Shown in pieces: positions 2,284 through 37,724 of a stretch of DNA of 63,971 nucleotides. The position numbers were made by a program, and so were the translations under genes. The notes under the pieces were generated by a model. It was given only the letters and a program-made list of their open reading frames with translations, did no database searches and was not told the DNA's origin. This DNA comes from Bacteroidales bacterium (GTDB lineage: Bacteria; Bacteroidota; Bacteroidia; Bacteroidales; UBA7960). Each line of letters begins with the position of its first letter. Positions within the stretch are counted from its first letter, which is position 1. The stretch spans positions 1 through 63,971 of the forward strand of contig PWZB01000136.1 in the NCBI GenBank assembly GCA_003567625.1. Reading direction: 5' to 3'.

Positions 2284-4125
2284 ATGACAAATGTTTTGAC
2301 ATATAGCGAAGATAGTATTCGCACACTTGATTGGCGCGAGCATATTCGTATGAGACCGGGCATGTATATCGGTAAACTTGGCGATGGCATTTCTCCCGAT
2401 GATGGAATTTACGTGCTTCTGAAAGAGGTGATTGATAATTCAGTGGATGAATTTATCATGGGTTTTGGAAAAACCATTGAAGTAAAGATAGTTGATAAAG
2501 TTGTTACTGTGAGAGATTTTGGGCGGGGCATTCCACTGGGTAAAGTGGTTGATTGTGTTTCGAAAATCAATACCGGTGCTAAATATGACACTAAGTTATT
2601 CAAAAAGACGGTCGGCTTGAATGGTGTCGGAACGAAAGCCGTGAATGCATTATCGGTAAAATTTAACATTAAATCCATACGTGAAAGTAAAATCAAGGAT
2701 GCCATATTTGAAGATGGCAACCTCGTTGAAGAATCACAGCATGATGATACGGCTCAACGAACAGGAACCGTTGTAACCTTTATGCCTGATGAGAAAATTT
2801 TTGGCAATTACCGTTTTATTGACGAATTTGTTGAGCGGTTATTATGGAATTATGTTTTCCTGCATCGTGGTTTAAAAATCATTTATAACGGCCAACGCTT
2901 ATATTCTGAAAACGGACTCAAAGATCTCCTTGAGAGAAATATTGATTATCCTACTGTTTATCCTGTTGTTCATATTGTTGAAGATGATCTTGAGTTTGCT
3001 TTCACTCACAGTGCTACACAATAAAGTGAAGAGTTTTTTTCTTTTGTTAATGGTCAGCAGACCGTCCAGGGAGGTACTCACCAGGCTGCATTCAGGGAAG
3101 CTTTTATCAAAACGATCAGAGATTTTTATAAAAAAGATTTTGAAGCAAATGACATTAAAACTTCCCTGATCGTGGCATTAAGCATTAAAGTACAAGAACC
3201 GGTTTTTGAATCACAGACAAAAACAAAGCTTGGTTCACAGCATATTGAGCCCGGAGGGACCACCATACGTAATTATATCGGCGAAATTTTGAAAAAGCGA
3301 CTTGATAATTACCTGCACATGAACTCCGATATTGCCGATGCATTGTTGAAAAAAATCCTGCAATCGGAAAAAGATAGAAAAGACCTGGCAAACATCAAAA
3401 AAGTTGCCAGGGAAAGAGTGAAAAAAGCAAATGTACATAACAAGAAACTTCGTGACAGCAAGATTCACTATAATGATAATCATCCCCTGAGGCTTGACAC
3501 TAAGTTGTTCGTTACAGAGGGTGATTCTGCGAGCGGTTCAATAACAAAAGTTCGTGACGTGAATACACAAGCTGTTTTTAGTTTAAAAGGGAAACCTTTG
3601 AATTGCTATGGTTTATCAAAAAAGATAGTCTATGAGAACGAAGAGTTTAACCTGTTACAGGCGGCGCTTAATATAGAAGACTCACTAGAAGACTTGCGTT
3701 ATAATAATATCATTATTGCAACTGATGCCGATGTCGATGGTATGCATATCAGGCTGTTGCTGATAACCTTTTTTCTTCAGTTTTTTCCTGACCTTGTTCG
3801 TAATGGGCATCTTTATATTTTGCAAACGCCATTATTCAGGGTTCGTAATAAGAAGAAAACTATATATTGTTACAGCGAAAATGAAAAAGCCACGGCACTA
3901 AATGAACTTGGAGATAAAGCTGAAATAACCAGGTTTAAAGGGCTTGGCGAAATATCACCTGATGAATTCGGGAATTTTATAGGGGAAAATATACGCTTGG
4001 AACCGGTTATTTTACGTAAGGAAAATGGCATCGGTGATATATTGAACTTTTATATGGGCAAAAATTCTCCTGACAGGCAAAACTTCATAATAAACAACCT
4101 CAGGTTTGACCTGGATATGGTATGA
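2284..4125 (+). pseudogene. parE: DNA topoisomerase IV subunit B (ParE-type type IIA topoisomerase B subunit) interrupted by one in-frame TAA at 3022..3024
   Basis: Track ORFs 2284..3024 and 3172..4125 are in the same frame. Reading through the TAA gives a continuous sequence: ...[36 protein letters not shown]... The N-terminus is YSEDSIRTLDWREHIRMRPGMYIGKLG (GHKL ATPase). TOPRIM blocks are [12 protein letters not shown] and [17 protein letters not shown]. The total of 613 codons is a normal ParE length. Confidence 0.85.
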
Positions 4126-8044: not shown

Positions 8045-8449
8045 TCAGATATTTTCTTTTTCTTCTTTTTTTTCGATAAGCAGTAAAAGGTCTTCAATAA
8101 CTTTTTGCAGGTATTCAATACATGATTCACTTTTAACGACATAATTAAACACACCTAGTTCCTGTAATTTTGCAACGAGATTAATATCACGTTGTGCTGA
8201 GCATGCTATAACAGGAATTTCAGGATGTTTCTCATTTATTTTTTGTATTAATTCATATCCGTGAATATCGGGCAACATAAGGTCAACAATAACAATATTA
8301 GGCTTTTCATCAATATGATTTAACAGCTCCTGTCCTAAAACGAAATTAGAAATAGTAATATTTTTTATAGAACCAAGGCACAGCTTGAGTAACATTCCCT
8401 CCGTTTTGTTGTCTTCTATAACAAAAACTTTTCTTTTATTTTTATTCAT
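8045..8449 (-). CDS. Single-domain response regulator (CheY-like receiver)
   Basis: 134 aa. It has VFVIEDN, the phospho-acceptor context IVIVDLMLPD, VIACSAQ and YVVKS. There is no output domain. Confidence 0.85.
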   Translation of the reverse strand: MNKNKRKVFVIEDNKTEGMLLKLCLGSIKNITISNFVLGQELLNHIDEKPNIVIVDLMLPDIHGYELIQKINEKHPEIPVIACSAQRDINLVAKLQELGVFNYVVKSESCIEYLQKVIEDLLLLIEKKEEKENI

Positions 8450-8626
8450 ATAATTACAATTAGGGTACTGTCTGTATTATTATTTTTTAAAATCCAAAAG
8501 TCCCATCGTAAAGCTCAATACTGTAGTAAAATAAATGATTTACTTAACATGGCTGCTATATTTATTTACCAAAATTAAATATATTCAATTTCCCCGGCCG
8601 TTTAAAAAATATTTTGGGTAAACTAT

Positions 8627-9079
8627 TTAATTGACAGTAGATAACATACCAACCGCACATCCTTCTAGTCCGTCTTTAAATGTAAATGTTAAACTATATC
8701 GTCCACTCATAGTGACTGGATATTCAATGAACGGGAAATGACGCTTTGTGTTAATATCATAAGTAGTTGCAATTAGCTGATCTCCCCGATAGAGGCTTAT
8801 GACTACTTCCCCGGGCTTGGTTTGGTCATTACAAGCAAATATCCTGTAGGTGGTTCCACGGTTAAGAATAATTTCGTACCTGGTAACACGGGGTGAAGAC
8901 CCTCTTTGAACTTCCCCGTGTTGGACAGGGAAGCTACGGATGAATCTCGCATTACCTAGTTTAGCATGGCAAACATCCGTTAGTTCATCTCCACATTGTG
9001 ATTTTGCTTCGAATGGAATGCAAAATACTGTTAATGTGGCAATAGCCATTGTGAAAAAAAGTTTTTTTATCATAATCAT
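8627..9079 (-). CDS. Small secreted protein of unknown function (signal peptide, four Cys)
   Basis: The N-terminus MIMIKKLFFTMAIATLTVFCIPFEAKSQ is signal-peptide-like. I recognise no family. Its ATG overlaps the upstream stop as ATGA (9076..9079). Confidence 0.55.
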   Translation of the reverse strand: MIMIKKLFFTMAIATLTVFCIPFEAKSQCGDELTDVCHAKLGNARFIRSFPVQHGEVQRGSSPRVTRYEIILNRGTTYRIFACNDQTKPGEVVISLYRGDQLIATTYDINTKRHFPFIEYPVTMSGRYSLTFTFKDGLEGCAVGMLSTVN

Positions 9080-9987
9080 TCGATTATTTTGTTTCGTATA
9101 TATTCAACTTGCTTGCCAATTCCAGCAACTATTTCTTCATCGATATTTACTTCACTTCTTGAATTATCGACAACGACAATATTACCATCAACTTCTTTCA
9201 TAGCCGGTTCTTTATATATATATGTTATTGATACGTTGTCAAACTCTTTTTTCAAATCCATTAAATCAAGGAATAATTCTTCAAAATTAGGATCATTTCG
9301 GTAATTACTCAACAAAAGTAATATATTATCCAGAACGATCTTTTGTTCGCCGATACGTTGGTGGATGCGTTCTTTATTAGTTGGGTAGGTTTCAACCTTA
9401 GTTGCGATATATAAACTTTCTATCCATGTTCCATAGGCGATAAGCACGGAAATGCTGCTTCGGCTCTGGTCTATCAGGTATCGTGTCATACTGTCAAAGC
9501 CACGATTGGTAATATATAACACTGAATCAACATTACGGCTGCTCTCGGATAACTTGTTCAAGGTTTCATAATCAAAAAATTGCCCTATTCGTAAATCATC
9601 AGCCAGATCTTTTACATTACGTAAATATGAAAGCGTGGTAACAGTTCTGTCGTATATGTTCATATAAACCAGGTCTGTGCCATATACGCCGAGGTTTAAT
9701 GCCCTTTTGAAATTGGTGTTGTAATTGTTTATACCGCTGACAGGATTCAGTAATTCCTGAGAATAGATCACGTCAGATTTTTGCAGTAAAACAGACATTT
9801 CAACCGGATTAGGTACCGACGATATCATCTGTCCGACAACTTCATCGGTCATTTTGATATCTTCAGAAATCAGCGTATCGGCAAGAAGGTCTGTAGCTTC
9901 TTCTCTTTTCTCGGGAACACAAGCTGCAAAAAACAATGCTAAAAACCCGGATATTATTAGCATTGATGAAACAATTCTTTGTGTCAT
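9076..9987 (-). CDS. Lipoprotein of unknown function (predicted mostly helical)
   Basis: MTQRIVSSMLIISGFLALFFAAC is a lipobox-type signal peptide. The track ORF extends to a TTG at 10038, which would overlap the ABC gene's stop by 4 nt. I prefer the ATG at 9987. Confidence 0.55.
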   Translation of the reverse strand: MTQRIVSSMLIISGFLALFFAACVPEKREEATDLLADTLISEDIKMTDEVVGQMISSVPNPVEMSVLLQKSDVIYSQELLNPVSGINNYNTNFKRALNLGVYGTDLVYMNIYDRTVTTLSYLRNVKDLADDLRIGQFFDYETLNKLSESSRNVDSVLYITNRGFDSMTRYLIDQSRSSISVLIAYGTWIESLYIATKVETYPTNKERIHQRIGEQKIVLDNILLLLSNYRNDPNFEELFLDLMDLKKEFDNVSITYIYKEPAMKEVDGNIVVVDNSRSEVNIDEEIVAGIGKQVEYIRNKIIE

Positions 9988-10034
9988 GGCAAGTATTTTT
10001 ATGATATTAATACTAAAACTTATTACAAATATAA

Positions 10035-13000
10035 TCAAATTCCCGTTTGTTCTATCAAAAAATCACGTATTTTATTTCTAAATTTATTAATTTTTTGTTT
10101 TATTATAGGGATTGCGTTTTCTGCAAAGAAAATTGTTTTTGAGAATATATGGTAATATAAGGCAAAATATAGTAACAATGTAAAAATCCAAAGTATAATG
10201 AGATTAAAATAGAATGTATCATATAAATTGCCCAAAAAATGTTTTCTTGGTGCCAGGAAGTGTGACCTGAAATTAAATAATCTTTGATCCTGCGGGTCAA
10301 GATATATTGGATCGGTTTTTTGCACCAGGTGGTTATTAAGCCTTACAAGTGGTAATTCAACCATGACATTTTTGACAAAACTTGTAAGGTATTCATTATG
10401 ATAATCATTCATCAGTTGGCGATACTCCTTATGCTTTTCAGGTGTTCTTATCCTTTTTGCAATTTCCTCATCAATTGCATTGTTTACAGTATTAAAACGA
10501 GCCCGGTAAAAATCATTTAATTTTTCCAAATAGCTGGTCAGGCTATCTGCAAGCGAGGGGTTAAACTTGCCGGGTACAAGCTTATTTATTTGATTGAATT
10601 TATAATCGTGATACTGTGTGAATATGCTTTCATGCTCTTTGGTGATTTCATTTCTAAGCAGTTCAAGGTTATCTGCGCAGATAGGCTCTTCGTATCCTTG
10701 CGAAAGCCTGAATTTGTAATCCTCCACATATCTTTTCAGTTCAGGAATATAGTATACATTTTTATAATACAAAGCGCTTTCCAGTTTTCTTCGCGAATAA
10801 AAATCACGGTTATACTTATTGTTAATGTATTGATTAACAACAAGCCCTTCAAAAGCCCATCTTGAAGGCATTATTTCGGCAATAATGGGCACTTTTTCCT
10901 GCCCGCCTCCAATAGCACGGTTTATTTTATCAAAGCTAAACATTGCCCCGGTTAATACCATTTGCGGAATGATTAAAAAGGGAATCAGAATATATATTGT
11001 TATGGCTGAGTTGAAGGCTGAAGAAATATTAAGCCCCAGAACATTTGCAAATGCAGCTAGAGAGAAGAAAACTAACCAATACTCGAAATACATCCCTTTG
11101 ATTCCTAAAATATAATTTCCTACAATAATAAATAAAAATGCCTGGATGGCTGATAATATAAAAAGGATACCTGTTTTGGCGCATAAATAGCTGCTGCGGC
11201 TCAAATTTAAAAACGATTCACGTTTTAGGATTTTCCTGTCTTTGAAAATTTCTTCGGCACTGACGATAAGCCCAAGGAAAAGGGCAACAATGGTGCACAT
11301 GAAGATATAAGGCATGACGTTATCATTATTACGGAAAATATAGACATCAGATGTTGGGTCTTCTACATACCGGATCACGAAAGCAAGCAGAAATCCTAAT
11401 AAAGGAGCTTCAAGCAAGTTAAGTAAAAGGTATTGTTTGTTTGAAATCTTGGAAAAAAAGTCGCGTGAAAAAAATATTTTGTATTGATTCAGCCAATTGG
11501 GTTTTTTGAAAGATTCGGGCAGTTTGTCGAATGCACCTGTTATCTTTTTTACAGGTATTTTATTTTTAAAATGTTCGTACCACTCGGCCGGAGATACTTT
11601 TCGGTTGGCTGTTGGTTGTCCGTACTCATCAACAATTCTTGACTCAATAATGCTGAAAATGGTTTCAGGGTTGACATTACCGCAAGAGGGACATTCACCG
11701 ATATGGCTGTCTATTTGATTGTCAATCTCTTTAAAATATATTGCTGCTTCAACGGGGTTTCCGTAATAAATTTGAAATCCTCCATCATCAAGGATTGTTA
11801 CATTGTCAAACATTTTATAAATTTCGGAGGATGGTTGATGAATAACGACAAATATAAGCTTTCCCCTGACGGTTAATTCCCGCAGAAGTTCCATGACATT
11901 TTCGGAATCGCGTGAGGATAATCCTGATGTTGGTTCATCAACAAACAAAACTGCGGGTTCACGAATCAACTCAAGGCCGATATTCAATCGTTTACGTTGC
12001 CCGCCGCTAATCTCTTTATTAAGGGGGTCTCCTACTTTCAGATTTTTTATGTGCGAAAGGCCCAGGTTGAACAATACTTTGTTTACTTTGTTTTCAATCT
12101 CTTCTTCCGAAAGGCTTTTATATACTAACTTTGTGCTATAATAAAGGTTTTCATAAACGGTAAGTTCTTCAATTAAAAGATCATCTTGAGGAATATATCC
12201 GATGATACCTTTTACAAGGTCACTTTCTTCGTGCAAATCATTAGCGTTTATATATATATATCCCCTGGTCGGTTTTGCCATGCCTGACATCACATTGAGT
12301 AATGTTGTTTTGCCTGACCCGCTGGCTCCCATTATGCCTAACATTTTTCCGGATTGTTCTTCAATGCTGACTTCCCTCAGGCCAATATGACCACTAGGGA
12401 ATCTGTAATGTACTTTATCAATTTTGAAATGTACATTTATTGAGGTATCATCGGATAAAAATTTTGATGCAACATCAGTGTAAAAAATGGGTTTGCCTTT
12501 AGGTTGTTTTATTACACTACCCCTGGCAATCAAGTAAATTTTACGATTATTTATTGGTAAACCGTTCAGTAAAAGTTCCCTGGTCGAAGTATAACGAAGG
12601 AAATAAAGGTCAACACTCTGTATTCGTAAAACAATTATATTTCCTTCAAGTTGAGGGAAAAAAATATGCTTTGCTTTTTTTGTGGGGTTTTTTTTTGAAT
12701 TTATCAGTAAGATTTCCGGAATATCCCAATTTTCGATATTTTCTTCTACTACAAATGTTTCGATAGCTTTATATTCTTCTTTACTTATGTTAAAGACTTC
12801 GGCAGCAGTATCAATAATCGCCATTCTTTGGGGGGTGAATTTTTTGTCTGAATTAACAAGTTCGAATAACCTGACAAGAACAACGATTTTTTGTTTTTGT
12901 GTAAGGGTTTTATTGATTTTTTTGGCTATTCCAAGTGTTTTGACAGAATCTTTAACTGAAGTAAGTTTTGGTTTTTTTTCTTGCTCATTTTCAGAGGCTT

Positions 13001-13175
13001 TTTTATCTCCTACATAGTCATCAAACAGGGCAAGATATTCCTTAACAGAGCTTTCGTTAAGTTGCTGACGAAGAAAATTCTCAACATATACACGTTCGTT
13101 GGTTGACAGGCCAACGTCTTGCTTTGCAATAATTGCAAAGAGCTGCATCAATGCTTTTAGAATTTCTTCACTCAT
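10035..13175 (-). CDS. Fusion protein: N-terminal TerB-like module + unassigned beta-rich region + ABC ATPase + ABC-2-type permease (ABCG-like half transporter)
   Basis: Walker A is GIMGASGSGKTT, the signature is ISGGQRKRLNIGLEL and Walker B is VLFVDEPTSGLSS. Several C-terminal TM helices follow (LLNLLEAPLLGFLLAFVI, IFMCTIVALFLGLIV and others). The N-terminus EILKALMQLFAIIAKQDVGLSTNERVYVENFL resembles TerB/DjlA-N modules; that is pattern recognition only. Confidence 0.8.
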   Translation of the reverse strand: MSEEILKALMQLFAIIAKQDVGLSTNERVYVENFLRQQLNESSVKEYLALFDDYVGDKKASENEQEKKPKLTSVKDSVKTLGIAKKINKTLTQKQKIVVLVRLFELVNSDKKFTPQRMAIIDTAAEVFNISKEEYKAIETFVVEENIENWDIPEILLINSKKNPTKKAKHIFFPQLEGNIIVLRIQSVDLYFLRYTSTRELLLNGLPINNRKIYLIARGSVIKQPKGKPIFYTDVASKFLSDDTSINVHFKIDKVHYRFPSGHIGLREVSIEEQSGKMLGIMGASGSGKTTLLNVMSGMAKPTRGYIYINANDLHEESDLVKGIIGYIPQDDLLIEELTVYENLYYSTKLVYKSLSEEEIENKVNKVLFNLGLSHIKNLKVGDPLNKEISGGQRKRLNIGLELIREPAVLFVDEPTSGLSSRDSENVMELLRELTVRGKLIFVVIHQPSSEIYKMFDNVTILDDGGFQIYYGNPVEAAIYFKEIDNQIDSHIGECPSCGNVNPETIFSIIESRIVDEYGQPTANRKVSPAEWYEHFKNKIPVKKITGAFDKLPESFKKPNWLNQYKIFFSRDFFSKISNKQYLLLNLLEAPLLGFLLAFVIRYVEDPTSDVYIFRNNDNVMPYIFMCTIVALFLGLIVSAEEIFKDRKILKRESFLNLSRSSYLCAKTGILFILSAIQAFLFIIVGNYILGIKGMYFEYWLVFFSLAAFANVLGLNISSAFNSAITIYILIPFLIIPQMVLTGAMFSFDKINRAIGGGQEKVPIIAEIMPSRWAFEGLVVNQYINNKYNRDFYSRRKLESALYYKNVYYIPELKRYVEDYKFRLSQGYEEPICADNLELLRNEITKEHESIFTQYHDYKFNQINKLVPGKFNPSLADSLTSYLEKLNDFYRARFNTVNNAIDEEIAKRIRTPEKHKEYRQLMNDYHNEYLTSFVKNVMVELPLVRLNNHLVQKTDPIYLDPQDQRLFNFRSHFLAPRKHFLGNLYDTFYFNLIILWIFTLLLYFALYYHIFSKTIFFAENAIPIIKQKINKFRNKIRDFLIEQTGI

Positions 13176-13236
13176 TCAGAAGATTTTTATGTAATACAAT
13201 GAAATGCGCTATGATGTAAAAAGGTTTGGCAAAATA

Positions 13237-13611
13237 TTAATAACTATGCATTTCAAATGGAATATCAACAATTTCAGAATATTCTTCACCTGCTTCAAGC
13301 ATATCTTCATCGTCTTCCTGGTAGTACCATTGTACTACCACATCATTACCTTCATTAAGGATGTCTTCAAATTTAAGAAGAATATCCAGAAGGGCTTTAG
13401 AAGACGCTGTATTAAAGTATTCCAGCCTGAATATTACGTTAGTTTTCGGATTAGGATTTTTCCCATATTCTTCAATCCATTGTATAGCCGGAGTGTAAAA
13501 AGTAACCACATCCTCAGGCAACGACCTTCCGGAAAACTCGATTATGTTGTTTTCAGCATCAAGTATTACATTAGGAGTATCATCAGTCCCTTTAATTTTT
13601 ATTACATCCAT
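13237..13611 (-). CDS. SiaC-like regulatory phosphoprotein (DUF1987)
   Basis: 124 aa. IKGTDDTPNVILDAENNIIEFSGRSLPED...IQWIEEY...FRLEYFNTASSKALLDILLKFE...VQWYYQEDDEDMLEAGEEY...PFEM aligns by eye along the whole length of P. aeruginosa SiaC. A Thr is present in the NT(S/A)S motif at residue 68. Confidence 0.8.
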   Translation of the reverse strand: MDVIKIKGTDDTPNVILDAENNIIEFSGRSLPEDVVTFYTPAIQWIEEYGKNPNPKTNVIFRLEYFNTASSKALLDILLKFEDILNEGNDVVVQWYYQEDDEDMLEAGEEYSEIVDIPFEMHSY

Positions 13612-13627
13612 ATTTATAAATTTTAAA

Positions 13628-14209
13628 TTAATCGATACTTCTTGAAATTTTAGTTCTTAAAATAAAAAACCGGTTATTCTCGTCCATTTCTGCAAAATGG
13701 TATTCCAGTTTTTCGCCGGTTTTCCTTGCAATATCAATCAGCCCTAGTCCTGCTCCCCCTTTATCGGATACTGATCCTTCCCTCATTTGTTTCTTAAACA
13801 ATTCTTTCAGGCCTTCTTTATCAAGCTGGTTAATTTTTTCCAATAGAGCTTTAAGTTCAGGCACCCTGTTTTTATCTACAGCATTGCCGGTAATAACCTG
13901 GTATTCATTTTCTTCTTTACCTATTTTACCCACAATAAAAATACCATTACCGTATTGTCCTTTATTACCCTTGTATTCATATTCTTCGGCATGTTTGCTA
14001 AGGTTTTGCAAACATTCAACCATAACATGAAAAACTTTTCTTTTTATCGAGGTATTTTCGCTGTAGCTGTTCATTTTATTTTCAGCCAACGATGTAAAAG
14101 CTTTTGTTATTTGATGCGTTATCTCTCCATCGTAGACTAAAGTGAATTTTTTAGCCATCATATCTTCATGTAAAGAGCAGATTAGCTTCAAGTAGTTTGA
14201 ATTTTCCAT
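13628..14209 (-). CDS. SiaB-like protein kinase (GHKL/anti-sigma-kinase-like)
   Basis: 193 aa. The C-terminal G-box is DKGGAGLGLIDIARKTGEKLEY. Its size and its position immediately upstream of the DUF1987 gene (16-nt gap) match siaB-siaC. Confidence 0.7.
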   Translation of the reverse strand: MENSNYLKLICSLHEDMMAKKFTLVYDGEITHQITKAFTSLAENKMNSYSENTSIKRKVFHVMVECLQNLSKHAEEYEYKGNKGQYGNGIFIVGKIGKEENEYQVITGNAVDKNRVPELKALLEKINQLDKEGLKELFKKQMREGSVSDKGGAGLGLIDIARKTGEKLEYHFAEMDENNRFFILRTKISRSID

Positions 14210-14281
14210 TTTTGTGTTTTTTCAATTATTAAAAATCGAATTTTATTTACGTGCAATTTTACAAAATAAATGTTTATAAAC

Positions 14282-16873
14282 CTAAAATCTAATACCTATC
14301 ATAAGCACATCGTCAATTTGTTTATTATCTCCCAGCCATTTTATATAGTCATTTTTAAAATAAGCTAATACTTGATTCATTGGGATGTCTTTGTTTTTGA
14401 TAATAGCCTCTTTTATTCTTTTCGGGAAATATTTTTTCCCTTCAGGGCCTCCAAATTGGTCTGACAAACCATCGGAGAATATATATATTGCATCACCTTT
14501 TTTAATATCAACAACAAAATTTTCAAACTTGGGTTCCGGTTTTCCTGGCCTGGGTATTCCGCCGATTGCTGTTCTTGTTCCTCTAAATTCTTTCAGGTTT
14601 CCATCACGAACAAGGTATAACGGTCTGTGTGCACCTGCAAACTGCAGTTGCATTTTCTTAGTATTGATTTTGCATAAAGCTATATCCATCCCATCTCTTG
14701 CACTTGCGTCATCAAGGTCTTGTTTAAGAGTTTTTTGAACACCCCGGTGCAATTGACAGAGTATATCGCCAGGATTATGATCTTTTGGCTGACTGACGAT
14801 TTGGTTTATCAAAAAATATCCGATCAAAGAAAGCATAGCACCTGGAACGCCATGTCCGGTACAGTCAATAGCAGAGATAAAAACAGAATCATCTTTTTCG
14901 TATAGCCATGGAAAATCACCGCTAACAATATCTCTTGGTATATAAAACAAAAAGGAATCTGGAAATATGTTTCTTATTTGTTTTTGGTTTGGCAATAATG
15001 CATTTTGAAGCCTGAAGGCATAGTTTATACTATCGGTAATTTTTGCGTTTTTTTCTTTTATTTCCTGTTCAATTTTTTTCAGCTCGGTTATATCATGAAG
15101 GATAAAGAGTATTGTTTCCAGGCGGTCTTCCTCGTTAAATTCGGGAATAGCATTAGCATTGATGATGTGTTGTTCTTCATTGACCGGGAAAGAAATTTCA
15201 GTTTGAACCTTTTGCTTTTTATTTATTACTTTTTCAACTGTTTGATCAATAAATGTTGTTAACTCTTCGCGCAGGTCAACTTCGTTAAGATGTTTTTTGT
15301 GAAACTCTTCTGATTTCAGTTCCGAGTAGCATTCTATAGCCGGGTTGGCATAGAAAAATTGCCTGTTAAGGTCAACCCTGATAATGATATCGGGGCTGTT
15401 GTCGGAGAGCGTTTGCATTTGTCCGCGCATTCGCTGTTCTTTTTCAGCTCTTTTGCGTTCGGTAATGTCGGTAGTATTCAGAAGAAGGCCATTAATAGCG
15501 GGGTCATGCAACAGGTTACGACCGGTCGTTTCCAAAAACATTATCGAACCATGCTTGTTAAGATATGTATATTGAATCTCCTGGGGCTGGTCCGGATTTT
15601 TCAGGAGGTTTTCAAACATCTGGTTTATAGTATTCTGACCTCTTTTGTTAGTACGGTCAAAATCTTTGCCCGCAAACATATCCTCTTCAGTATAACCCAG
15701 TATATTTTTTACTGAAGGGCTGACATATTTTAATTTCTTGTTTTTATCGTATATGGTTATCAGCTCAGATGCATTTTCCAATAAAGAATAAAGCCTTTTC
15801 TGGCTCCGGTTAACTTCTTCTACCTTTTCTTCAAGATTAATGTTTGTTTTTTCGAGCTCTTCTTGTGTAAGACGCATCTCTTCGGCGTTTTGCCGGAGTT
15901 CCTCTTCATTTTCCTTAAGTTCCTGGGTCATTTCCTGCGATTCTTTCAAAAGGCGCTCGGTTTTTTCGGTTATTTTAAGATTATATATGGTTTGGGCTAC
16001 GATTTCAGCAATGCTTTTCACAAATTTTATCTCGTGTTCTTTAAAGCGTTTAAATGATGCGAATTCAAACGCCCCCTGCAGTTTTTCTTCCATAAAAATC
16101 GGTACGATAAGAATACTGTCGGGTTTTTTTTCACCAAGTATTCCGGATGTAATTGAAAGATAATAATCGGGAATTTCCGTACGGTGAACTATATCTCTTT
16201 CAATTGCTGCCTGTCCAACAAGCCCTTCTCCCACTTTTACTTCGCCTTTTAAGTATTTTCGGCGGTTGTATGCATATGAAGCGCTAACATAAAGTTTTTC
16301 AATTTCATCATCATAAATGTGAAAAACACCCTGAACCACATCAATATAATGAATCAAAGCTTCAAGTACTTCCTGAGATAGAATATTTACATCATTGTGT
16401 TTCCTGAGTATCTGGTTGATCTTATCTTTGCCAACCATTTCCCAGTTTTGCAGTGATTCTTTTTGATTGTTTTCGTGCAGTGTATCACGAAGGTTTTGTA
16501 GTGTCTTCCCAAGGGTATCGGATTCATCAGTTATTTCAAAGTCAATATCAAACTGGCCATTACCAATTTTCTCGGCAAATTCAGCAACACGGTTGATATT
16601 CTCGGTTTGGCTAATTAGTTGACCCTGAAGGGTATCGTATTGTTTTTGTAATTCTTCTTTTTTCTCAATTATCAAGTATCCCGTTATGGCAAAAACAATT
16701 GGTATTGTATCAAGTATTATCAATACGGGGTTTTGACGATGTATTTCTAAAATCCCCGATAAAGTAAATTCAATACCGGATTTACTTAATTCTATAATCC
16801 AGGCAAGAAATGGAAAAAGAAATCCTAAACCAAAAAGTAATAAAATAAATTGTTTTTTATTCAAAGACTTCAT
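14282..16873 (-). CDS. Membrane-bound multi-sensor PP2C (SpoIIE-type) phosphatase, SiaA-like: 2 TM + HAMP-like + GAF + coiled coil + 2 PAS + PP2C
   Basis: TM helices lie at residues 8-28 and 49-69. The GAF region includes GEGLVGQAAIERDIV...ILIVPIF. An acidic coiled coil covers residues 305-362. PAS-type segments follow. The C-terminal SpoIIE/PP2C domain shows DIVSGDFPWLY, AIDCTGHGVPGAMLS, IYIFSDGLSDQFGG and DDVLMIGIRF. Confidence 0.85.
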   Translation of the reverse strand: MKSLNKKQFILLLFGLGFLFPFLAWIIELSKSGIEFTLSGILEIHRQNPVLIILDTIPIVFAITGYLIIEKKEELQKQYDTLQGQLISQTENINRVAEFAEKIGNGQFDIDFEITDESDTLGKTLQNLRDTLHENNQKESLQNWEMVGKDKINQILRKHNDVNILSQEVLEALIHYIDVVQGVFHIYDDEIEKLYVSASYAYNRRKYLKGEVKVGEGLVGQAAIERDIVHRTEIPDYYLSITSGILGEKKPDSILIVPIFMEEKLQGAFEFASFKRFKEHEIKFVKSIAEIVAQTIYNLKITEKTERLLKESQEMTQELKENEEELRQNAEEMRLTQEELEKTNINLEEKVEEVNRSQKRLYSLLENASELITIYDKNKKLKYVSPSVKNILGYTEEDMFAGKDFDRTNKRGQNTINQMFENLLKNPDQPQEIQYTYLNKHGSIMFLETTGRNLLHDPAINGLLLNTTDITERKRAEKEQRMRGQMQTLSDNSPDIIIRVDLNRQFFYANPAIECYSELKSEEFHKKHLNEVDLREELTTFIDQTVEKVINKKQKVQTEISFPVNEEQHIINANAIPEFNEEDRLETILFILHDITELKKIEQEIKEKNAKITDSINYAFRLQNALLPNQKQIRNIFPDSFLFYIPRDIVSGDFPWLYEKDDSVFISAIDCTGHGVPGAMLSLIGYFLINQIVSQPKDHNPGDILCQLHRGVQKTLKQDLDDASARDGMDIALCKINTKKMQLQFAGAHRPLYLVRDGNLKEFRGTRTAIGGIPRPGKPEPKFENFVVDIKKGDAIYIFSDGLSDQFGGPEGKKYFPKRIKEAIIKNKDIPMNQVLAYFKNDYIKWLGDNKQIDDVLMIGIRF

Positions 16874-16999
16874 TTTTTAAACCGTCTTATATTCCAGAGC
16901 TTTTTTTACAAATGATTTAATAAAACTTGATTTGATATTCAAAAATAGTGGAATTCAGTTCAATTTTCATTTTTTTTATTAAAAAAATTTAAACTTAAA

Positions 17000-17893
17000 T
17001 TATTGTTTTGCAGTAATATTAATGTTCTCAAAATATTTGCCTATTTCTGCTCCAATGTTTTTAAAAAGATTAATATCATATTTTTCATAGGGCTTAAATG
17101 AAGCTATTTCTATTATACCAAGGATATTTTGTTTCTTTTTATTAGTTATCGGAAAAATAGCCATATTGTTTGGAGTTCCGCTTCCAAGCCCTGAAGAAAC
17201 TGTGATATAGCCTTCCGGGATATTGTCAAGATTAATAGGATCTCCTTGTTTGGCGACCTGTCCGACCAACCCTTCTCCAATCTCAAACTCAAAGATCTTT
17301 TCTTCAGGAATATAATAGGCATACGTTGCCATTAAAACCAATTTATCTTTTTTATTATCTGATTGCTTTAAATACAATTCACCTTGTGCAAGTTCATAAA
17401 ACTTGCCAATACATGACAAAACTGTCTTTGATATTTTTTTTGGGTCTTTGATTTTTGGGATGTTTTCTTTAAAACATTCAATCATTTTTTTTTCTCTTTC
17501 CTCATATTGCTTTTCCAATTGTCTTATACGTTCTTTTTCCTTTTGTGCTTTTTCTTCTTCCGACTCATCTTCCTTTTTTATTGAAGTATATTGATCAGGT
17601 GATTGCCGGTCCGGGATTTTCTTTTTCAATTGCGCCATTAAATTACTCAATTCAATAACAGCAAGAATAAAAAAAGTGGTAAATGGAATAACCAAAAGCA
17701 GGATCATGAAAAGGAATAAATAATAAAATTCTATCTCAACATTAGCGAATTCGGGTGTTTGCGAAAGAGTATCATATATAGCATTGCTGTATCTGAACAA
17801 AAAGAGGGAAAAAATTATCATTACAACCGCCAGAACAAGATATATAATGAATTTTCCGTACCTGAATAATTCCTTAAATTGATTATTTTTCAT
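17000..17893 (-). CDS. Membrane-anchored GAF-domain protein
   Basis: It has two N-terminal TM helices, a Glu/Lys-rich coil (EDESEEEKAQKEKERIRQLEKQYEEREKKM) and a C-terminal GAF-like region (GEGLVGQVAKQGDPINL...MAIFPI...GIIEIASF). Confidence 0.7.
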   Translation of the reverse strand: MKNNQFKELFRYGKFIIYLVLAVVMIIFSLFLFRYSNAIYDTLSQTPEFANVEIEFYYLFLFMILLLVIPFTTFFILAVIELSNLMAQLKKKIPDRQSPDQYTSIKKEDESEEEKAQKEKERIRQLEKQYEEREKKMIECFKENIPKIKDPKKISKTVLSCIGKFYELAQGELYLKQSDNKKDKLVLMATYAYYIPEEKIFEFEIGEGLVGQVAKQGDPINLDNIPEGYITVSSGLGSGTPNNMAIFPITNKKKQNILGIIEIASFKPYEKYDINLFKNIGAEIGKYFENINITAKQ

Positions 17894-18026
17894 TTATAAA
17901 TCTATTGTATTATATATAAAAAATTATGCTGTATTATAATTTTTTAAGCGTTAAAAGTAAACAATTTTGAACTATATTATTAGATATTTTATCAATTTTA
18001 TATTAAATTTTTATTATAATAAAAAA

Positions 18027-18596
18027 CTATTTTTGTAATAATAAATAAAAAAATTTAATTATTTCATCACTTTTAAGAACATAGTCAACATTTTTGGTTT
18101 TATCAATAGCAGCCACCGGCATAGTTGGCATTTGTGCATCTGAGGGATTTTGTACAACCGTGATGCCTCCATAATCCTTTATTTTTTTCAATCCTGAAGC
18201 TCCATCTTTATTTGCGCCTGACAAAACAACACCAACACATTTGTTTTTATAAGCATATCCACCTGTCATAAATGTCAGATCAATACTTGGCCTGGAGTGG
18301 TTAACAGATTGTTCTGTTGATAAAGCAAACGTGCCTGTAAGCTCAATATATAAATGATAATTAGCCGGTGCCAGATATATGTAACCGGATTTGATTTTAT
18401 CTTTGTCAAATGGTTCAACAATAGGCATGTTTGATTTGAAAGACAATGTTTCAACAAAACCATGCCTTACATGTTTTAAACGGTGCAATGCCAAAACTAC
18501 CGGTATGGGATAATCTTTTGGAAGACCTGATATAAGCTTTGTTATGACCTGAAAACTTCCCGCTGACCCCCCAATAATTATCAATTTAATATTCAT
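18027..18596 (-). CDS. cheB: CheB-type protein-glutamate methylesterase, catalytic domain only (no receiver domain)
   Basis: 189 aa. Motifs: IIIGGSAGSFQVI (Ser), VVLALHRLKH (His), VVLSGANKDGASGLKKIKDYGG (Asp region), VVQNPSDAQMPTMP. The ORF begins directly with the catalytic domain. Confidence 0.8.
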   Translation of the reverse strand: MNIKLIIIGGSAGSFQVITKLISGLPKDYPIPVVLALHRLKHVRHGFVETLSFKSNMPIVEPFDKDKIKSGYIYLAPANYHLYIELTGTFALSTEQSVNHSRPSIDLTFMTGGYAYKNKCVGVVLSGANKDGASGLKKIKDYGGITVVQNPSDAQMPTMPVAAIDKTKNVDYVLKSDEIIKFFYLLLQK

Positions 18597-18629
18597 TTAA
18601 ATAATGTATTGCCTGTTATCAATTTATTA

Positions 18630-19475
18630 TCAGCCGGTTTTTTTATAAATTTTTTCGTTTTTGTTTATTTCAGTAAATTTATAATAATCTTTACACCATG
18701 ATATATTTTCCATGTTGCCTACAACTAAATAACCATTATAAGCAAGGTTGTTTGCAAACAGCCCTAAAAGCATTTCCTGATATTGCTGAGTGTAATATAT
18801 AAAAATATTCCTGAAAATTATAACATTAAATCCCCTGATTCTTTGGGCATCCTGGTATTTATAAAGGGAAAATTCAATGTTTTCATATATGTCGTTTTTG
18901 ATCCTGAAACCGTTTTTGACAGGTAAGATATGCCTGGAAAGACTGGCTTTCCCTTCATTGAATCTTTGATAATTAGTTTCGCTTATCTCAATATTTTTGC
19001 TTGAATAAACCCTTTTTTCCAGGTTTTGAATAATAAATTGTGAAATGTCTGTTGCCAGGATTTCGGTCTTATGTTTTAAACCGGCTTCGTTTATTATAAT
19101 TGCGGAGGTTATTAACTCTTCTCCTGATGAGCATCCGGGAATCCATATTTTTATTCGTGTATCTTTCTTATCAAGCGAGGGTAACATTTCATCGCGAAAA
19201 TATCGCCAAAATGCAGGGTCACGAAAAAATTCCGTACACTCTACGTTTATATCACTTAAAAACTTTTCAAAAAAAGTTTTATCAGTAATTAACTTGTCGG
19301 TTAAAGTATCAAAACCTTTTAATTCGTTTATTTGCATAGCCCTTATAATGCTTCTTTTGAAGAAAGTTAATGCAAAACAACCCAAGTCAAAACCATGTGC
19401 TGTTTTAATGGCTTCAATAAGATTCCGGATACCTGAAATACTGATCTCTATCTCCTTGCCTAATTCATTATTCAT
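18630..19475 (-). CDS. cheR: CheR-type protein-glutamate O-methyltransferase
   Basis: 281 aa. The N-terminal helical domain contains TEFFRDPAFW. The SAM-binding block is IWIPGCSSGEELITSAI. FNVIIFRNIFIYY is also present. Confidence 0.8.
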   Translation of the reverse strand: MNNELGKEIEISISGIRNLIEAIKTAHGFDLGCFALTFFKRSIIRAMQINELKGFDTLTDKLITDKTFFEKFLSDINVECTEFFRDPAFWRYFRDEMLPSLDKKDTRIKIWIPGCSSGEELITSAIIINEAGLKHKTEILATDISQFIIQNLEKRVYSSKNIEISETNYQRFNEGKASLSRHILPVKNGFRIKNDIYENIEFSLYKYQDAQRIRGFNVIIFRNIFIYYTQQYQEMLLGLFANNLAYNGYLVVGNMENISWCKDYYKFTEINKNEKIYKKTG

Positions 19476-19574
19476 TTGATATGTCTAAGCGAATTCGCAA
19501 CAAATATACTAAAATTATTATTCCATGAATTCAATTATATCCAATAATAATTAAATAGCCTTAACAATGTCATT

Positions 19575-19738
19575 GAATTACGAAAGTTATCGAATTACGA
19601 ATTTATTACGAATATACGAATTACGAATATTAATTCCGATTACCTGCCGACTGCCGATTGCCGATTGCCGACTGCCGACTGCCGACTGCCGATTGCCGAC
19701 TGCCGTCATACCGATTTACCACCCGCCATCCGTTACCC
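19575..19738. repeat. Composite short-tandem-repeat element: TTACGAA-type AT-rich units, a CCGATTACC joint, then 9 x TGCCGAY heptamers (19645..19707) and a C-rich tail
   Basis: Read directly: tgccgac tgccgat tgccgat tgccgac tgccgac tgccgac tgccgat tgccgac tgccgtc. A 7-nt period is incompatible with coding. Confidence 0.9.
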
Positions 19739-29007: not shown

Positions 29008-30402
29008 ATGCAAAATATTAAACTTTTGAATTTACCGGTAATTGTCATTGTTATTTTAGTTTTGTTTTATAGTGAACCTTCAAAGGCCGAAAATCCATCC
29101 CGGCAATATTCCGAAGAGATGGATAATTATTCGGGTGAAGCTTTATCCGGGTCATATGATCAGCCCGAAGTTGATTATTTTCACCCTGATTATTTACGCT
29201 ATGGGAATTATGTTTACAAAAAAAACATCCGCACGGTTTTATTAAACAAGAAAGGCTGGGATTTTTCGCCTGCTATGATTAAGTTCGGAAGTGACGAGAA
29301 ACTTGTATTACGTTTTGACGACCTTGACGCTGACCACAAGCCATATTATTATACCATAATTCATTGTGATGCCAAATGGCGGCCTTCCGATTTGCAACCT
29401 TATGAATATATTGATGGGTTTTATGATGACAGGGTCCGGGAATTCAGCCATTCTTTTAATACACAAGTACGATACACCAATTACAGGGTGGAATTTCCAA
29501 ACCAGAATATGCGTCCGAAAATTCCCGGAAACTATTTAATTAAGGTATTTCTGGATAATGACAGGGAAAACCTGGTGCTTACAAGAAAATTCATGGTTTA
29601 CGAACAGAAGGTTACTGTTTCCGGCGAAGTTCATATGGCTACCCGGGTATCATTAAGGGATTTTAAACAGGAACTCAACTTTTCGATAAATGCTCATCAA
29701 TACAGAATAGATGATCCATACAGGGATATAACTGTAATTATTAAGCAAAACGGCAGGTGGGATAATGTAATTCATGAATTGCAACCAAGGTCGTTTTCAA
29801 ACAACATTCTTAAATATGATTATGAATCAGAAATATTATTTGATGGAGGTAATGAGTTTAGATATTTTGATACTAAAAGCCTGAAACATTCAACGGCCAT
29901 GATAGATGAGATAGAATATAAGCCTGCTTACAGGGAAGTCTTCCTCAGGAAAGACTTCAGCAGGATGAATAAGAGGTATGTGTTTGAACATGATATTAAC
30001 GGCAGGTTTTATATACAAAATGAGTATGGATATAATCAGCATCTTGAGTCGGATTATGCCATGGTTCATTTTACTTTATCCATGCCGGTTCCGCTGGCAA
30101 ATGGCAATGTTTACCTGTCAGGGGAATTTACTGACTGGAACTATACCAAATCAAACAGGATGGATTACAATTACCGGGAAAATGCTTACCAGGCTTCACT
30201 TCTGCTGAAACAAGGATATTACAACTATATGTATATGTTTTTGGAAGATGGACGGGATAATCCTGATATTACTATGATTGAGGGTAATCATTCGGACACT
30301 GAAAACGCATATACGATACTGGTATATCATCGCCGTCCGGGTACTTTTTTTGACCGGCTTGTTGGGATGAAACATATAAATATTCATGATGATGAGAGAT
30401 AG
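29008..30402 (+). CDS. DUF5103-family protein (T9SS plug-protein-like)
   Basis: A signal peptide is followed by IRTVLLNKKGWDFSPAMIKFGSDEKLVLRFDDLDADHKPYYYTIIHCDAKWRPSDLQPYEYIDGF. This matches my memory of the DUF5103 / T9SS_plug first domain and was not checked by search. Confidence 0.55.
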   Translation: MQNIKLLNLPVIVIVILVLFYSEPSKAENPSRQYSEEMDNYSGEALSGSYDQPEVDYFHPDYLRYGNYVYKKNIRTVLLNKKGWDFSPAMIKFGSDEKLVLRFDDLDADHKPYYYTIIHCDAKWRPSDLQPYEYIDGFYDDRVREFSHSFNTQVRYTNYRVEFPNQNMRPKIPGNYLIKVFLDNDRENLVLTRKFMVYEQKVTVSGEVHMATRVSLRDFKQELNFSINAHQYRIDDPYRDITVIIKQNGRWDNVIHELQPRSFSNNILKYDYESEILFDGGNEFRYFDTKSLKHSTAMIDEIEYKPAYREVFLRKDFSRMNKRYVFEHDINGRFYIQNEYGYNQHLESDYAMVHFTLSMPVPLANGNVYLSGEFTDWNYTKSNRMDYNYRENAYQASLLLKQGYYNYMYMFLEDGRDNPDITMIEGNHSDTENAYTILVYHRRPGTFFDRLVGMKHINIHDDER

Positions 30403-37110: not shown

Positions 37111-37185
37111 GATAACTTAATCTGTATTGTTGTATAAATCCTAACAATAATTTTGGAAATAACAAATAACAAATAAATTCCAAAT

Positions 37186-37250
37186 CTCAATTACAAAAAT
37201 TCCAAAACCGGATTGTTCAGGACATTGGGTTTTAGAAAATTGTAATTAAC
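37186..37250. repeat. AT-rich imperfect palindrome between the convergent apbE and the small Cys-rich ORF
   Basis: tcaattacaaaaattccaaaacc ... gggttttagaaaattgtaattaa. It is flanked by the outer pairing ggaaataacaaataacaaataa / ttatttgtttcc. It may act as a bidirectional terminator or a REP-like element. Confidence 0.3.
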
Positions 37251-37284
37251 CTTGTTATATGTTTTTTATTTGTTTCCGATACAT

Positions 37285-37497
37285 TTAATCCTGTTCTTTC
37301 TCCTCAACATTTTCAACATTATCACACTCTTCGGGTGCATTTTTCCGGCAGGTGCATTTTGCAGCCTTGCCCGTAACAGGATCGAAAGAATTATGGCATG
37401 TACGGGTAAACTCGCCGCCACGCTTGACAAACATCTTTATGGCTATGCCTGCTATAGCTATTGCTATTAATATGATCGCGAGCAAGAAGATTTCCAT
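37285..37497 (-). CDS. Small single-TM Cys-rich protein, possibly an NqrM-like Na+-NQR maturation factor
   Basis: Sequence: MEIFLLAIILIAIAIAGIAIKMFVKRGGEFTRTCHNSFDPVTGKAAKCTCRKNAPEECDN.... It has one TM helix and a C...CxC...C cluster. Its size, topology and Cys pattern recall NqrM (DUF539), and it sits next to apbE. The start is taken at the internal ATG at 37497. Confidence 0.35.
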   Translation of the reverse strand: MEIFLLAIILIAIAIAGIAIKMFVKRGGEFTRTCHNSFDPVTGKAAKCTCRKNAPEECDNVENVEEKEQD

Positions 37498-37724
37498 GAT
37501 TGATATAAACTTTTTAAAGAACGGCAAATATAATAAGTTAAAAAATAAAATAAAACACTGTATTTCAAAAATCAAAGGTGGAGCTATCTTACAGTGAGAT
37601 GTTTTCCAAGCCCTGGAAAACAGGAAAAAAATCTTATTAGCTTAGTAATTTTTTTACTTCATCATTCGTTAATCGTTAATCAATATTCGTTGCCATCTAT
37701 ACCCACTTAAACCTCTGAGGTATA

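Follow-up and report, generated by a model that had tools for sequence, protein, structure and literature searches.

In Pseudomonas aeruginosa, the unphosphorylated form of SiaC binds the basic helical stalk of the diguanylate cyclase SiaD through Thr68 and the acidic helices alpha-2 and alpha-3, and phosphorylation blocks this binding (PMC8457831). In the same work it was suggested, in general terms, that DUF1987 proteins modulate 'adjacent proteins'. A relative of this SiaABC partner switch was analysed here in contig PWZB01000136.1 (assembly GCA_003567625.1, Bacteroidales bacterium, GTDB UBA7960), whose 63,971 nucleotides (nt) are referred to as the window. It is part of a cluster of ten co-directional minus-strand open reading frames (ORFs) spanning positions 8045-19475, in which genes for a methyltransferase (CheR), a methylesterase (CheB) and the switch proteins precede that of an ABC exporter. 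The locus agrees with SiaABCD (PMC7647112, PMC8457831) in encoding a PP2C phosphatase, a SiaB-family kinase and SiaC (DUF1987) in the same gene order, in the conservation of Thr68 and of the kinase catalytic segment, and in carrying a putative output gene directly after siaC. The differences are that the gene in this place encodes an ABCG-type exporter and not SiaD (no GGDEF gene occurs in the window), that the phosphatase has a GAF domain, two PAS domains and a Glu-rich helix, and that CheR, CheB and a transmembrane (TM)-GAF protein are added. Moreover, SiaA, SiaB and SiaC all score below their NCBIfam equivalog cut-offs. Due to this and to the absence of SiaD, the cluster is not a SiaABCD member in the strict sense.

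Other features of the locus also have described counterparts. In the MlaFEDB transporter, the small STAS-type protein MlaB is likewise encoded with an ABC transporter, is its proposed regulator and has a conserved Thr at the position phosphorylated in other STAS proteins. No kinase or phosphatase is known for MlaB, and its phosphoregulation was explicitly left as an open question (PMC7367683). Mla differs in being of the MCE type, with another fold of the transmembrane domain (TMD), whereas here a kinase/phosphatase pair is encoded in the cluster and SiaC is a putative binding partner of the transporter. Rv1747 of Mycobacterium tuberculosis (with PknF; PMC3138270, PMC5549992) has an N-terminal FHA-type domain in an ABCG-like exporter whose nucleotide-binding domain (NBD) comes first, and is encoded beside Ser/Thr phospho-signalling genes. 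However, Rv1747 carries a pair of canonical FHA domains and is itself phosphorylated, in its linker, by a Hanks-type kinase. The exporter described here has one minimal FHA-like fold C-terminal to a TerB-like domain, and the role of phosphoprotein falls to the STAS-like SiaC, encoded by a gene of its own. In the sensor kinase RsbK of Bacillus cereus, which feeds a partner switch, the S-helix behind the GAF domain is methylated by RsbM, an enzyme without a cognate esterase (PMC4574943); an association of RsbM with CheR has been noted (PMC12848376). This sigma-B pathway (RsbK/RsbM/RsbY) shares with the present locus a methyltransferase and a signalling helix right after the GAF domain of a partner-switch sensor. 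Nevertheless, RsbK is a histidine kinase acting via a receiver-PP2C protein on a sigma-factor switch, while in the cluster the candidate methylatable helix lies in the PP2C phosphatase itself, a dedicated CheB is encoded and a transporter gene is found in the output place. In Wsp-type pathways, CheR/CheB adaptation acts on a pathway controlling surface/biofilm physiology and not flagella. Such pathways consist of a methyl-accepting chemotaxis protein (MCP), CheA, CheW and a response-regulator diguanylate cyclase, none of which is present in the cluster. The locus combines features that are known separately, namely a SiaABC switch, STAS-like regulation of an ABC ATPase, an FHA-bearing exporter with Ser/Thr phospho-control and a methylatable helix. 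In full-text searches of the literature, no description was found of SiaC/DUF1987 with an ABC transporter or of a partner switch controlling one, and a search on CheB-CheR fusions did not bring up the wiring either. The first-pass annotation of the window had called the system a candidate undescribed one; the general idea of 'adjacent proteins' is already in PMC8457831.

The linkage between the siaABC genes and the ABC gene is not due to chance, and the arrangement goes far beyond it. The ABC fusion belongs to a large Bacteroidota family with good conservation, of more than 120 database clusters (56-86% identity), all of them about 1020-1060 amino acids (aa) long. Contigs carrying ABC homologs at 85%, 70% and 57% identity displayed an identical nine-gene order with different flanks. 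This order, cheR-cheB-TMGAF-siaA-siaB-siaC-ABC-lipoprotein-small protein, recurs across Bacteroidales and Cytophagales with unrelated flanks, and ABC genes are 47-50% identical between the orders that share it. Linkage was counted in one genome per GTDB species, which gave 80 loci with the ABC gene (Bacteroidales, Cytophagales, Flavobacteriales and Chitinophagales), each with a neighbourhood of about 20 kb only. Genes were counted by tblastn with the window proteins, and the denominators are the loci with enough sequence to judge. SiaC was found on the same strand, at most 400 nt upstream of the ABC gene, in 54 of the 80 loci. SiaB accompanied the ABC gene in 50/75 loci, SiaA in 43/65, CheB in 35/58 and CheR in 35/57. 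Upstream sequence of 7.5 kb or more was available for 39 SiaC-positive loci, and 34 of these held both CheB and CheR; of 18 SiaC-negative loci, none held either. In the reverse direction, metagenome contigs were scanned with a SiaC alignment and 74 close SiaC genes were obtained. The ABC gene lay directly downstream of 58 of these and was adjacent but convergent in two more, while SiaB was directly upstream of siaC in 59 of 63 loci. The first-pass annotation had proposed a coupling of SiaB, SiaC, the TerB-ABC fusion, CheR and CheB, to be given up if relatives showed no synteny; their co-occurrence and the place of siaC beside the ABC gene were thus confirmed in both directions. It had also counted a response regulator as tenth member, which did not hold. 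This receiver is downstream in just 2 of 74 loci, so it is lineage-specific and outside the conserved unit, the core being nine genes.

The tightest link with the ABC gene is that of siaC. In minimal loci, siaC alone (L059) or siaB-siaC (L048, L075 and L082) stands beside the ABC gene, and rearranged loci (L018, L157 and L159) still hold the same gene set. Some SiaC homologs occur in other contexts (L113, L125, L128, L130 and L156). In L130 (657-2762), a close SiaB-SiaC pair is followed after 3 nt by a class II aldolase/adducin-domain protein of at least 374 aa, cut by the contig end, which occupies the place of the ABC transporter. The short metagenome contig L156 (661-1941) carries three tandem SiaC paralogs with 51%, 45% and 41% identity to the window SiaC, and no ABC gene is seen on it. 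In the bin of 'Candidatus Planktophila lacus' (Actinomycetota), a contig of 5.9 kb (L020, CALPOI020000156.1) holds a Bacteroidota-type TerB-ABC gene (54% identity) with a SiaC fragment before it, and is probably mis-binned.

When the ORFs of the loci were clustered, a transport core of ABC transporter, lipoprotein and small Cys protein proved to be universal, in the order ABC-lipoprotein-small or, in one Sia-less clade, lipoprotein-small-ABC. The regulatory cassette (cheR, cheB, TM-GAF, siaA-like, siaB and siaC) lies upstream of this core in a large subset of the loci. About one third of the transporter loci are without it, which makes the cassette an accessory regulator of an older three-gene transport core. 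Among Bacteroidales, some loci with and some without the cassette have the same genes downstream. In the ABC tree, one nested Sia-less subclade falls inside the Sia-linked Bacteroidales, and another Sia-less clade stands between Bacteroidales and Cytophagales. Their positions indicate two or more events of gain or loss of the cassette, which two deep lineages have nonetheless retained. The reading to which we incline, with somewhat more confidence than doubt, is that of a modular system composed of the three-gene core and the six-gene upstream cassette, where SiaC would control the exporter and methylation would tune the phosphatase.

The spacing of the genes in the relatives is operon-like, with median spacers of 7 nt before cheB, 4 before the TM-GAF gene, 16 before siaA, 36 before siaB, 19 before siaC, 50 before the ABC gene, 64 before the lipoprotein gene and 13 before the small-protein gene. 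A sigma-70 promoter scan was uninformative (60 sites vs 56 expected) and the Bacteroidota -7 box, TAnnTTTG, was used instead. The 61-nt siaC-ABC spacer of the window showed a minimum free energy of -0.7 kcal/mol, no hairpin, no -7 box and no terminator-like site on the minus strand. A terminator or independent promoter at this point, which the first-pass annotation had named as a possible separation, is therefore not indicated. Among the relatives, only 2 of 56 have a -7-type box before the ABC gene. The cassette is probably co-transcribed with the transport core. The lipoprotein gene had been thought to overlap the ABC gene, but the NCBI gene call (303 aa) starts it at 9987 and leaves a 47-nt gap (9988-10034). 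A TAnnTTTG box lies in this gap, 38 nt upstream of the lipoprotein gene, and boxes at 10-80 nt upstream were found in 22 of 49 loci. An internal promoter is thereby suggested for the genes of the lipoprotein and the small protein, which may also be expressed separately. Upstream of the first cheR, a -7-type box was detected in 6 of 30 loci. The candidate box of the window, TATATTTG, stands at an equal distance from cheR in the 70%-identity relative L003, the remainder of that spacer being unrelated. Two heptanucleotide tandem repeats were observed further upstream of cheR, (GAATTAC)x7.6 at 19575-19628 and (CTGCCGA)x8.9 at 19644-19705. Both are absent from the matching spacer of L003, and they are a possible contingency or regulatory element. 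At the other end of the cluster, a 177-nt spacer with predicted secondary structure precedes the receiver gene.

The switch proteins very probably work as a SiaABC partner switch, as judged from their sequences. The SiaA-like protein has TMs at residues 9-27 and 51-69, a GAF domain at 160-296, PAS domains at 356-479 and 485-599 and a SpoIIE/PP2C domain at 661-863 (66 bits). The NCBIfam SiaA model covers only residues 596-863 (160 bits vs a cutoff of 700), and the N-terminal architecture differs. The domains listed in the first-pass annotation were recovered by Pfam and NCBIfam matches, except the HAMP domain of this phosphatase, for which no Pfam match was obtained in residues 1-160 even at E<=0.1. 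SiaB aligns to its P. aeruginosa counterpart (PDB 6kko_A, E=1.4e-15) with a conserved catalytic E..QN segment, scoring 89 bits against the kinase_SiaB equivalog (cutoff 225). SiaC aligns gap-free to P. aeruginosa SiaC (PDB 6kko_C, E=3e-14; YFNTAS vs YLNTSS) and scores 88 bits against the phos_prot_SiaC equivalog (cutoff 150). Its phospho-acceptor Thr68 is Thr in 59 of 60 sequences and Ser in the remaining one. The alpha-3 helix is far more acidic than that of P. aeruginosa SiaC (EDDEDMLEAGEE vs RRNERVAELAEE).

The methyltransferase and methylesterase have conserved catalytic motifs, with the SAM motif GCSSGEE of CheR kept in 50 orthologs and the CheB segments GGSAGS, LHR and SGAN.DG in 39. CheB consists of 189 aa and is a catalytic domain alone, without a receiver; its presence alongside CheR implies a reversible modification. 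In the SiaA-like protein, a helix of 56 residues (305-360) between GAF and PAS is gap-free in 41 orthologs, with the consensus NAEEMRATQEEL. It holds E/Q pairs at 323/324, 331/332 and 338/339, which are Glu-Glu in the window and seven residues apart. The classical methylation motif of MCPs is EExxA[S/T], and by sequence the consensus stretch NAEEMRAT fits it. Pair 331/332 was intact in 53 of 61 loci with cheB/cheR vs 0 of 6 without (Fisher p=3e-5), and pair 338/339 in 54 of 61 vs 0 of 6 (Fisher p=1.7e-5). It counts against the methylation part of our reading that these p-values are not phylogenetically corrected, that the six loci stand for about two lineages and that four of them were judged to be without cheR/cheB on the fetched flank only. 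In L029 the upstream ORFs are unrelated, so cheR/cheB are truly missing there. In all six, the EE pairs are replaced and the remainder of the helix is still conserved. This loss of the pairs where cheR/cheB are missing points to the signalling helix of the SiaA-like protein as the likely CheR/CheB target. An independent control for the association is provided by many Bacteroidales relatives, in which an extra cheR and an output-less sensor (Cache or 4HB_MCP, HAMP, GAF, PAS, PAS; no PP2C) lie upstream of the cassette (e.g. L012, 913-4130; also L007, L013-L016, L023, L026, L030 and L032). These sensors carry a very clean EE-heptad helix, QEEEMRQNMEEMQATQEE, in which both pairs were intact in 17/17 loci with cheR/cheB vs 0/5 without (p=3.8e-5).

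CheR/CheB could instead act elsewhere: solely on the output-less Cache/4HB-HAMP-GAF-PAS sensors, on the TM-GAF protein, on the transporter, or on CheB-CheR hybrid kinases that are not linked to the cluster. In that case the EE motif of the phosphatase would be structural. Glu-rich signalling helices are indeed common, the motif is even cleaner in the accessory sensors, and the EE association rests on roughly two independent lineages. Nonetheless, we consider this explanation unlikely, since the window cluster has no accessory sensor and yet keeps cheR, cheB and the EE helix of the SiaA-like protein, and since it is specifically the EE pairs that are exchanged without cheR/cheB. There is, in addition, a precedent for a CheR-type enzyme that methylates an S-helix behind a GAF domain (PMC4574943, PMC12848376). 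The TM-GAF gene is always located between cheB and siaA (36 loci), but the linker of its product (residues 90-150), considered as methyl-acceptor, was variable and gappy and hence an unlikely one. Directly downstream of the cluster, L003 (15417-21333) encodes a CheB-CheR-PAS fusion of 1243 aa, followed by a receiver gene and then a receiver-guanylate/adenylate cyclase gene. Five heptad repeats of the form [S/T]NEELQx occur in the fusion, which counts in favour of the methylation part of our reading.

The transporter is of the ABCG type by sequence, with the NBD before the TMD and Pfam matches to ABC_tran (110 bits) and ABC2_membrane (76 bits); the TIGR00955 match (246 bits) is under its cutoff. 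Its closest solved sequences are ABCG1, ABCG2 and Cdr1, ABCG1/ABCG2 with E~1e-47 over residues 264-753. This alignment stops at residue ~752, just past the fifth TM, and hydropathy places five TMs at 583-742 and the last one at ~990-1010, before a K/R-rich tail. Together, both results suggest that residues ~745-985 form a periplasmic domain of about 240 residues at the position of the ABCG 'EL3' loop, which would put it in one compartment with the lipoprotein and the small secreted protein.

The first-pass annotation had assigned no transport role to the N-terminal ~270 residues, and the first ~250 were indeed found to be a non-transport module, TerB-like and FHA-like. An AlphaFold model of residues 1-262 (mean predicted local distance difference test, pLDDT, 83; predicted template modelling score 0.79) displayed a helical TerB-like bundle at 3-143 and an eight-strand beta domain at 155-230. 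The TerB match reached 37.2 bits (Pfam gathering cutoff 24.4), and in Foldseek the helical part resembled the TerB-like PG1108 (2h5n, TM-score 0.64). The beta domain resembled FHA domains of MEK1 (5yyz, 3.2 A over 74 columns), CEP170 (4jon, 2.6 A over 76) and EssC (5fwh, 2.2 A over 70), each with a probability of ~1.0 and weak but consistent E-values (0.04-0.1), and also Rad53 FHA1. In an exhaustive profile search, 661 representative clusters matched the module with E<=1e-10, and in every case it occupied residues ~1-263, be it of a ~1000-1100-aa protein or of a truncated fragment. The module is thus dedicated to this transporter family.

Comparison of Sia-linked and Sia-less transporters singled out the same module. 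Identity between both classes, relative to that within the Sia-linked one, was 0.77 for TerB and 0.81 for the FHA-like domain, with 0.88-0.93 in other regions. Only L71 and K89 of the 1046 positions discriminate the classes, both in the basic helix LTSVKDSVKTLGIAKKINKTLTQKQK. Relaxation was assessed in a phylogenetically matched comparison, among residues with at least 93% invariance in 30 transporters of Sia-linked Bacteroidales; a residue counted as relaxed if five or more of the seven transporters in the nested Sia-less subclade differed from it. Relaxed positions amounted to 5/53 in TerB, 3/19 in the FHA-like domain, 6/122 in the NBD, 1/25 in the linker, 0/84 in the TMD and 0/26 in the periplasmic domain, i.e. 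8/72 in the N-terminal module vs 8/264 elsewhere (odds ratio 4.0, p=0.009). The most radical changes affected L71, T72 and P225, the latter in an FHA-like loop. By analogy with the docking of SiaC on the SiaD stalk, a similar docking on helix 71-96 is plausible.

Based on these patterns, the following mechanism is proposed. The membrane-anchored, SiaA-like GAF/PAS/PP2C phosphatase and the SiaB kinase would set the phosphorylation of SiaC at Thr68, their activities being predicted by homology. SiaC would then bind the ABC transporter in its cytoplasmic portion, with the TerB/FHA-like module near helix 71-96 as the most likely site, and switch export on or off post-translationally. The closest parallels are the binding of the SiaD stalk by SiaC and that of the MlaF ATPase by the STAS protein MlaB. 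By analogy the unphosphorylated form would be the binder. CheR and the receiver-less CheB would reversibly methylate the Glu-Glu pairs on the SiaA-like helix, and on the same helix of the output-less sensors, as an adaptation or gain-setting input to the switch, like RsbM on the S-helix of RsbK. Export by a complex of transporter, lipoprotein and small protein would thereby be gated by SiaC. In Pseudomonas the output gene siaD comes right after siaC, and here siaC stands in the corresponding place before the ABC gene. The gating itself, which the first-pass annotation had also hypothesised, is predicted from gene order and comparative patterns, and its interpretation is in this sense supported in part. 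In its full form, the proposal is a chemotaxis-like, MCP/CheA/CheW-free adaptive circuit in non-flagellated Bacteroidota, running from a reversibly methylated PP2C phosphatase via SiaB/SiaC to the gating of an ABCG-type envelope exporter and its dedicated periplasmic partners. This complete chain is put forward tentatively, as a possibility that may well need revision.

Several observations weigh against this mechanism. The TerB/FHA-like module is also found in transporters without SiaC and so is not a dedicated SiaC receiver. When SiaC was compared with the individual domains by mirror-tree, the partial correlations were all 0.09-0.28 and no partner domain was singled out. As only the ~20-kb neighbourhoods were covered, a distal target of SiaC, e.g. 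a GGDEF protein, may exist. The box before the lipoprotein gene means that the unit may not be a single transcript. Furthermore, residues 145-262 gave no Pfam FHA match even at E<=0.1, and neither the Arg nor the His that canonically bind phosphothreonine is conserved (G178-N stands for 'GR' and S187-V-D-L190 for 'SxxH'); at the expected FHA positions only S187 and N204-G205 are. The domain is accordingly FHA-like in fold only.

This last point also bears on a reversed polarity, according to which phosphorylated SiaC is the active ligand and is read by the FHA-like domain of the transporter, as with Rv1747. The fold lies immediately before the NBD, SiaC is a phosphothreonine protein with a conserved Thr68, and Rv1747 is positively regulated by Ser/Thr phosphorylation via its FHA domains (PMC3138270, PMC5549992). 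Likewise, the FHA-like domain has the top partial correlation with SiaC among the ABC domains, albeit a weak value, and P225 in its loop relaxes in the Sia-less subclade. We judge a reversed polarity unlikely. Besides lacking the canonical Arg and His and the Pfam match, the domain has eight strands instead of eleven and is retained in Sia-less transporters, and SiaC binding is abolished by phosphorylation in the characterised system (PMC8457831).

It would also be conceivable that the transporter is an input, reporting to SiaA/B/C by Bce-type 'flux-sensing', and that the target of SiaC is encoded elsewhere. The module predates the cassette, being present in Sia-less transporters, and in the local neighbourhoods no transcription factor or other obvious output is part of the cluster. 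However, the ABC gene sits exactly at the siaD output place (siaA-siaB-siaC-output). The sensor SiaA is also not the protein most tightly linked to it, minimal loci keeping siaC or siaBC only, and the SiaA-like protein has GAF and PAS sensor domains of its own. This makes an input role quite improbable. Finally, an adjacency by chance or expression convenience, with signalling and transport uncoupled, might be read from the cassette-free third of the loci and the SiaC homologs in other contexts, but is highly improbable given the linkage in both directions (54/80 and 58/74), the order kept across taxonomic orders with unrelated flanks, the gene set surviving rearrangement and the relaxation of constraint that, without the cassette, is specific to the N-terminal domains.

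The lipoprotein is a universal partner of the transporter, found beside the ABC gene in 67 loci with an invariant lipobox Cys. Its model (pLDDT 82) displayed a helical bundle and a four-strand sheet. Foldseek yielded no fold match (best E=0.4) and thus no clue to the substrate, and profile searches gave no Pfam or PDB sequence match. The small protein has a signal peptide and a conserved QC..C...C...GC pattern, and is of the same family as 'c11' in the lipoprotein-c11-ABC loci; profile searches against Pfam and PDB were negative for it as well. As a guess from the ABCG fold and the periplasmic partners, the exported substrate would be an envelope lipid or another hydrophobic surface component.

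To our knowledge, Bacteroidota have neither flagella nor chemoreceptors, yet CheR/CheB genes are widespread among them. The Glu pairs on the signalling helix offer a concrete substrate candidate for these orphan enzymes and, if true, would be the first non-MCP, non-kinase substrate of a CheR/CheB pair. The SiaABC switch would be extended to an output other than c-di-GMP control. Similarly, SiaC would be the first STAS-like protein to control an ABC transporter while being itself regulated by phosphorylation. This type of regulation was left open by the work on MlaFB (PMC7367683), and the cluster constitutes a natural case with its own kinase and phosphatase. It also defines a widespread envelope transporter family, with 661 clusters for the N-terminal module, and two partner proteins without known family. 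Cultured carriers are available for genetics, since the 80 loci include Flexithrix dorotheae DSM 6795, Saccharicrinis sp. 156, Marinilabiliaceae JC017, Catalimonadaceae JC749 and Cesiribacteraceae YIM B00369; Fulvivirga kasyanovii is a further cultured strain among them.

The positions of all features are collected in Table 1. The ten genes described by the first-pass annotation were all found where it had placed them, and it was also correct that no opposite-strand gene interrupts them, the ORFs of that strand being shadows that overlap genes with strong family matches.

Table 1. Genes, domains and sites of the cluster in the window (contig PWZB01000136.1)
Feature	Position	Strand	Match or remark
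cheR, S-adenosylmethionine (SAM)-dependent protein-glutamate methyltransferase, first cassette gene	18630..19475	-	PF01739, 113 bits
cheB, methylesterase catalytic domain only	18027..18596	-	PF01339, 158 bits, residues 6-181 of 189
Membrane-anchored TM-GAF protein	17000..17893	-	GAF_2 E=1.4e-8; TMs 15-33, 62-80
SiaA-like sensor phosphatase, 863 aa (2 TM, GAF, signalling helix, PAS, PAS, PP2C)	14282..16873	-	
Signalling helix of SiaA-like protein, aa 305-360	15794..15961; EE core 15857-15907	-	candidate CheR/CheB methylation sites
SiaB-family protein kinase	13628..14209	-	NF038262, 171 bits (cutoff 85), and DUF6272
SiaC-family STAS-like phosphoprotein	13237..13611	-	PF09345, 141 bits; Thr68 codon 13408-13410
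siaC-ABC spacer, 61 nt	13176..13236	-	without terminator or promoter signal
ABC half-transporter fusion, 1046 aa	10035..13175	-	Pfam TerB, ABC_tran and ABC2_membrane
TerB-like domain of ABC fusion	12741-13175	-	
Basic helix of TerB-like domain, aa 71-96, LTSVKDSVKTLGIAKKINKTLTQKQK	12888..12965	-	candidate SiaC docking site
FHA-like domain of ABC fusion	12441-12728	-	
NBD of ABC fusion	11736-12428	-	
ABC-2/ABCG-type TMD of ABC fusion	10941-11495	-	
Inferred periplasmic domain of ABC fusion	10221-10940	-	last TM 10140-10220
Lipoprotein, 303 aa	9076..9987	-	invariant lipobox Cys; no family match
Small secreted Cys protein, 150 aa	8627..9079	-	signal peptide; no family match
Single-domain response regulator	8045..8449	-	PF00072, 66 bits
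Candidate Bacteroidota-type -7 box TATATTTG	19501..19508	-	25 nt upstream of cheR start codon; consensus match only

A Pfam scan of the remaining 35 window ORFs (at least 90 aa) gave zero matches to GGDEF, EAL, HD-GYP, MCP-signal, CheA and CheW, in line with the earlier statement that the window has no GGDEF, EAL or HD-GYP protein. The conserved cluster of the relatives is likewise without MCP-signal, CheA or CheW domains. Rfam and tRNA scans of the whole window returned zero matches. The flanking genes are ordinary for Bacteroidota and comprise an Nqr operon, type IX secretion system (T9SS) plug and cargo proteins, and metal transporters.

Some minor observations were made in these flanks. 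On the plus strand, an in-frame TAA at ~3022-3024 interrupts a gyrB/parE-like gene at 2284-4125. In L001 the ortholog is intact (613 aa) and aligns in a single frame over 2284-4122 with 86% identity. The interruption may reflect a nonsense mutation, a pseudogene or an error of assembly. The region 37111-38547 contains no ORF of at least 100 aa; a 96-aa Cys-rich single-TM ORF (37285-37575, minus strand) adjoins apbE there. The peptide 'RSASVAKELVE' is duplicated at 38047-38220, which indicates a short direct DNA repeat. The T9SS plug-protein gene is located at 29008-30402. At 52739-57205 and 60958-62217, a bacterial serpin was found together with two peptidyl-arginine deiminase homologs of the Porphyromonas type, which bear C-terminal sorting domains for the T9SS.

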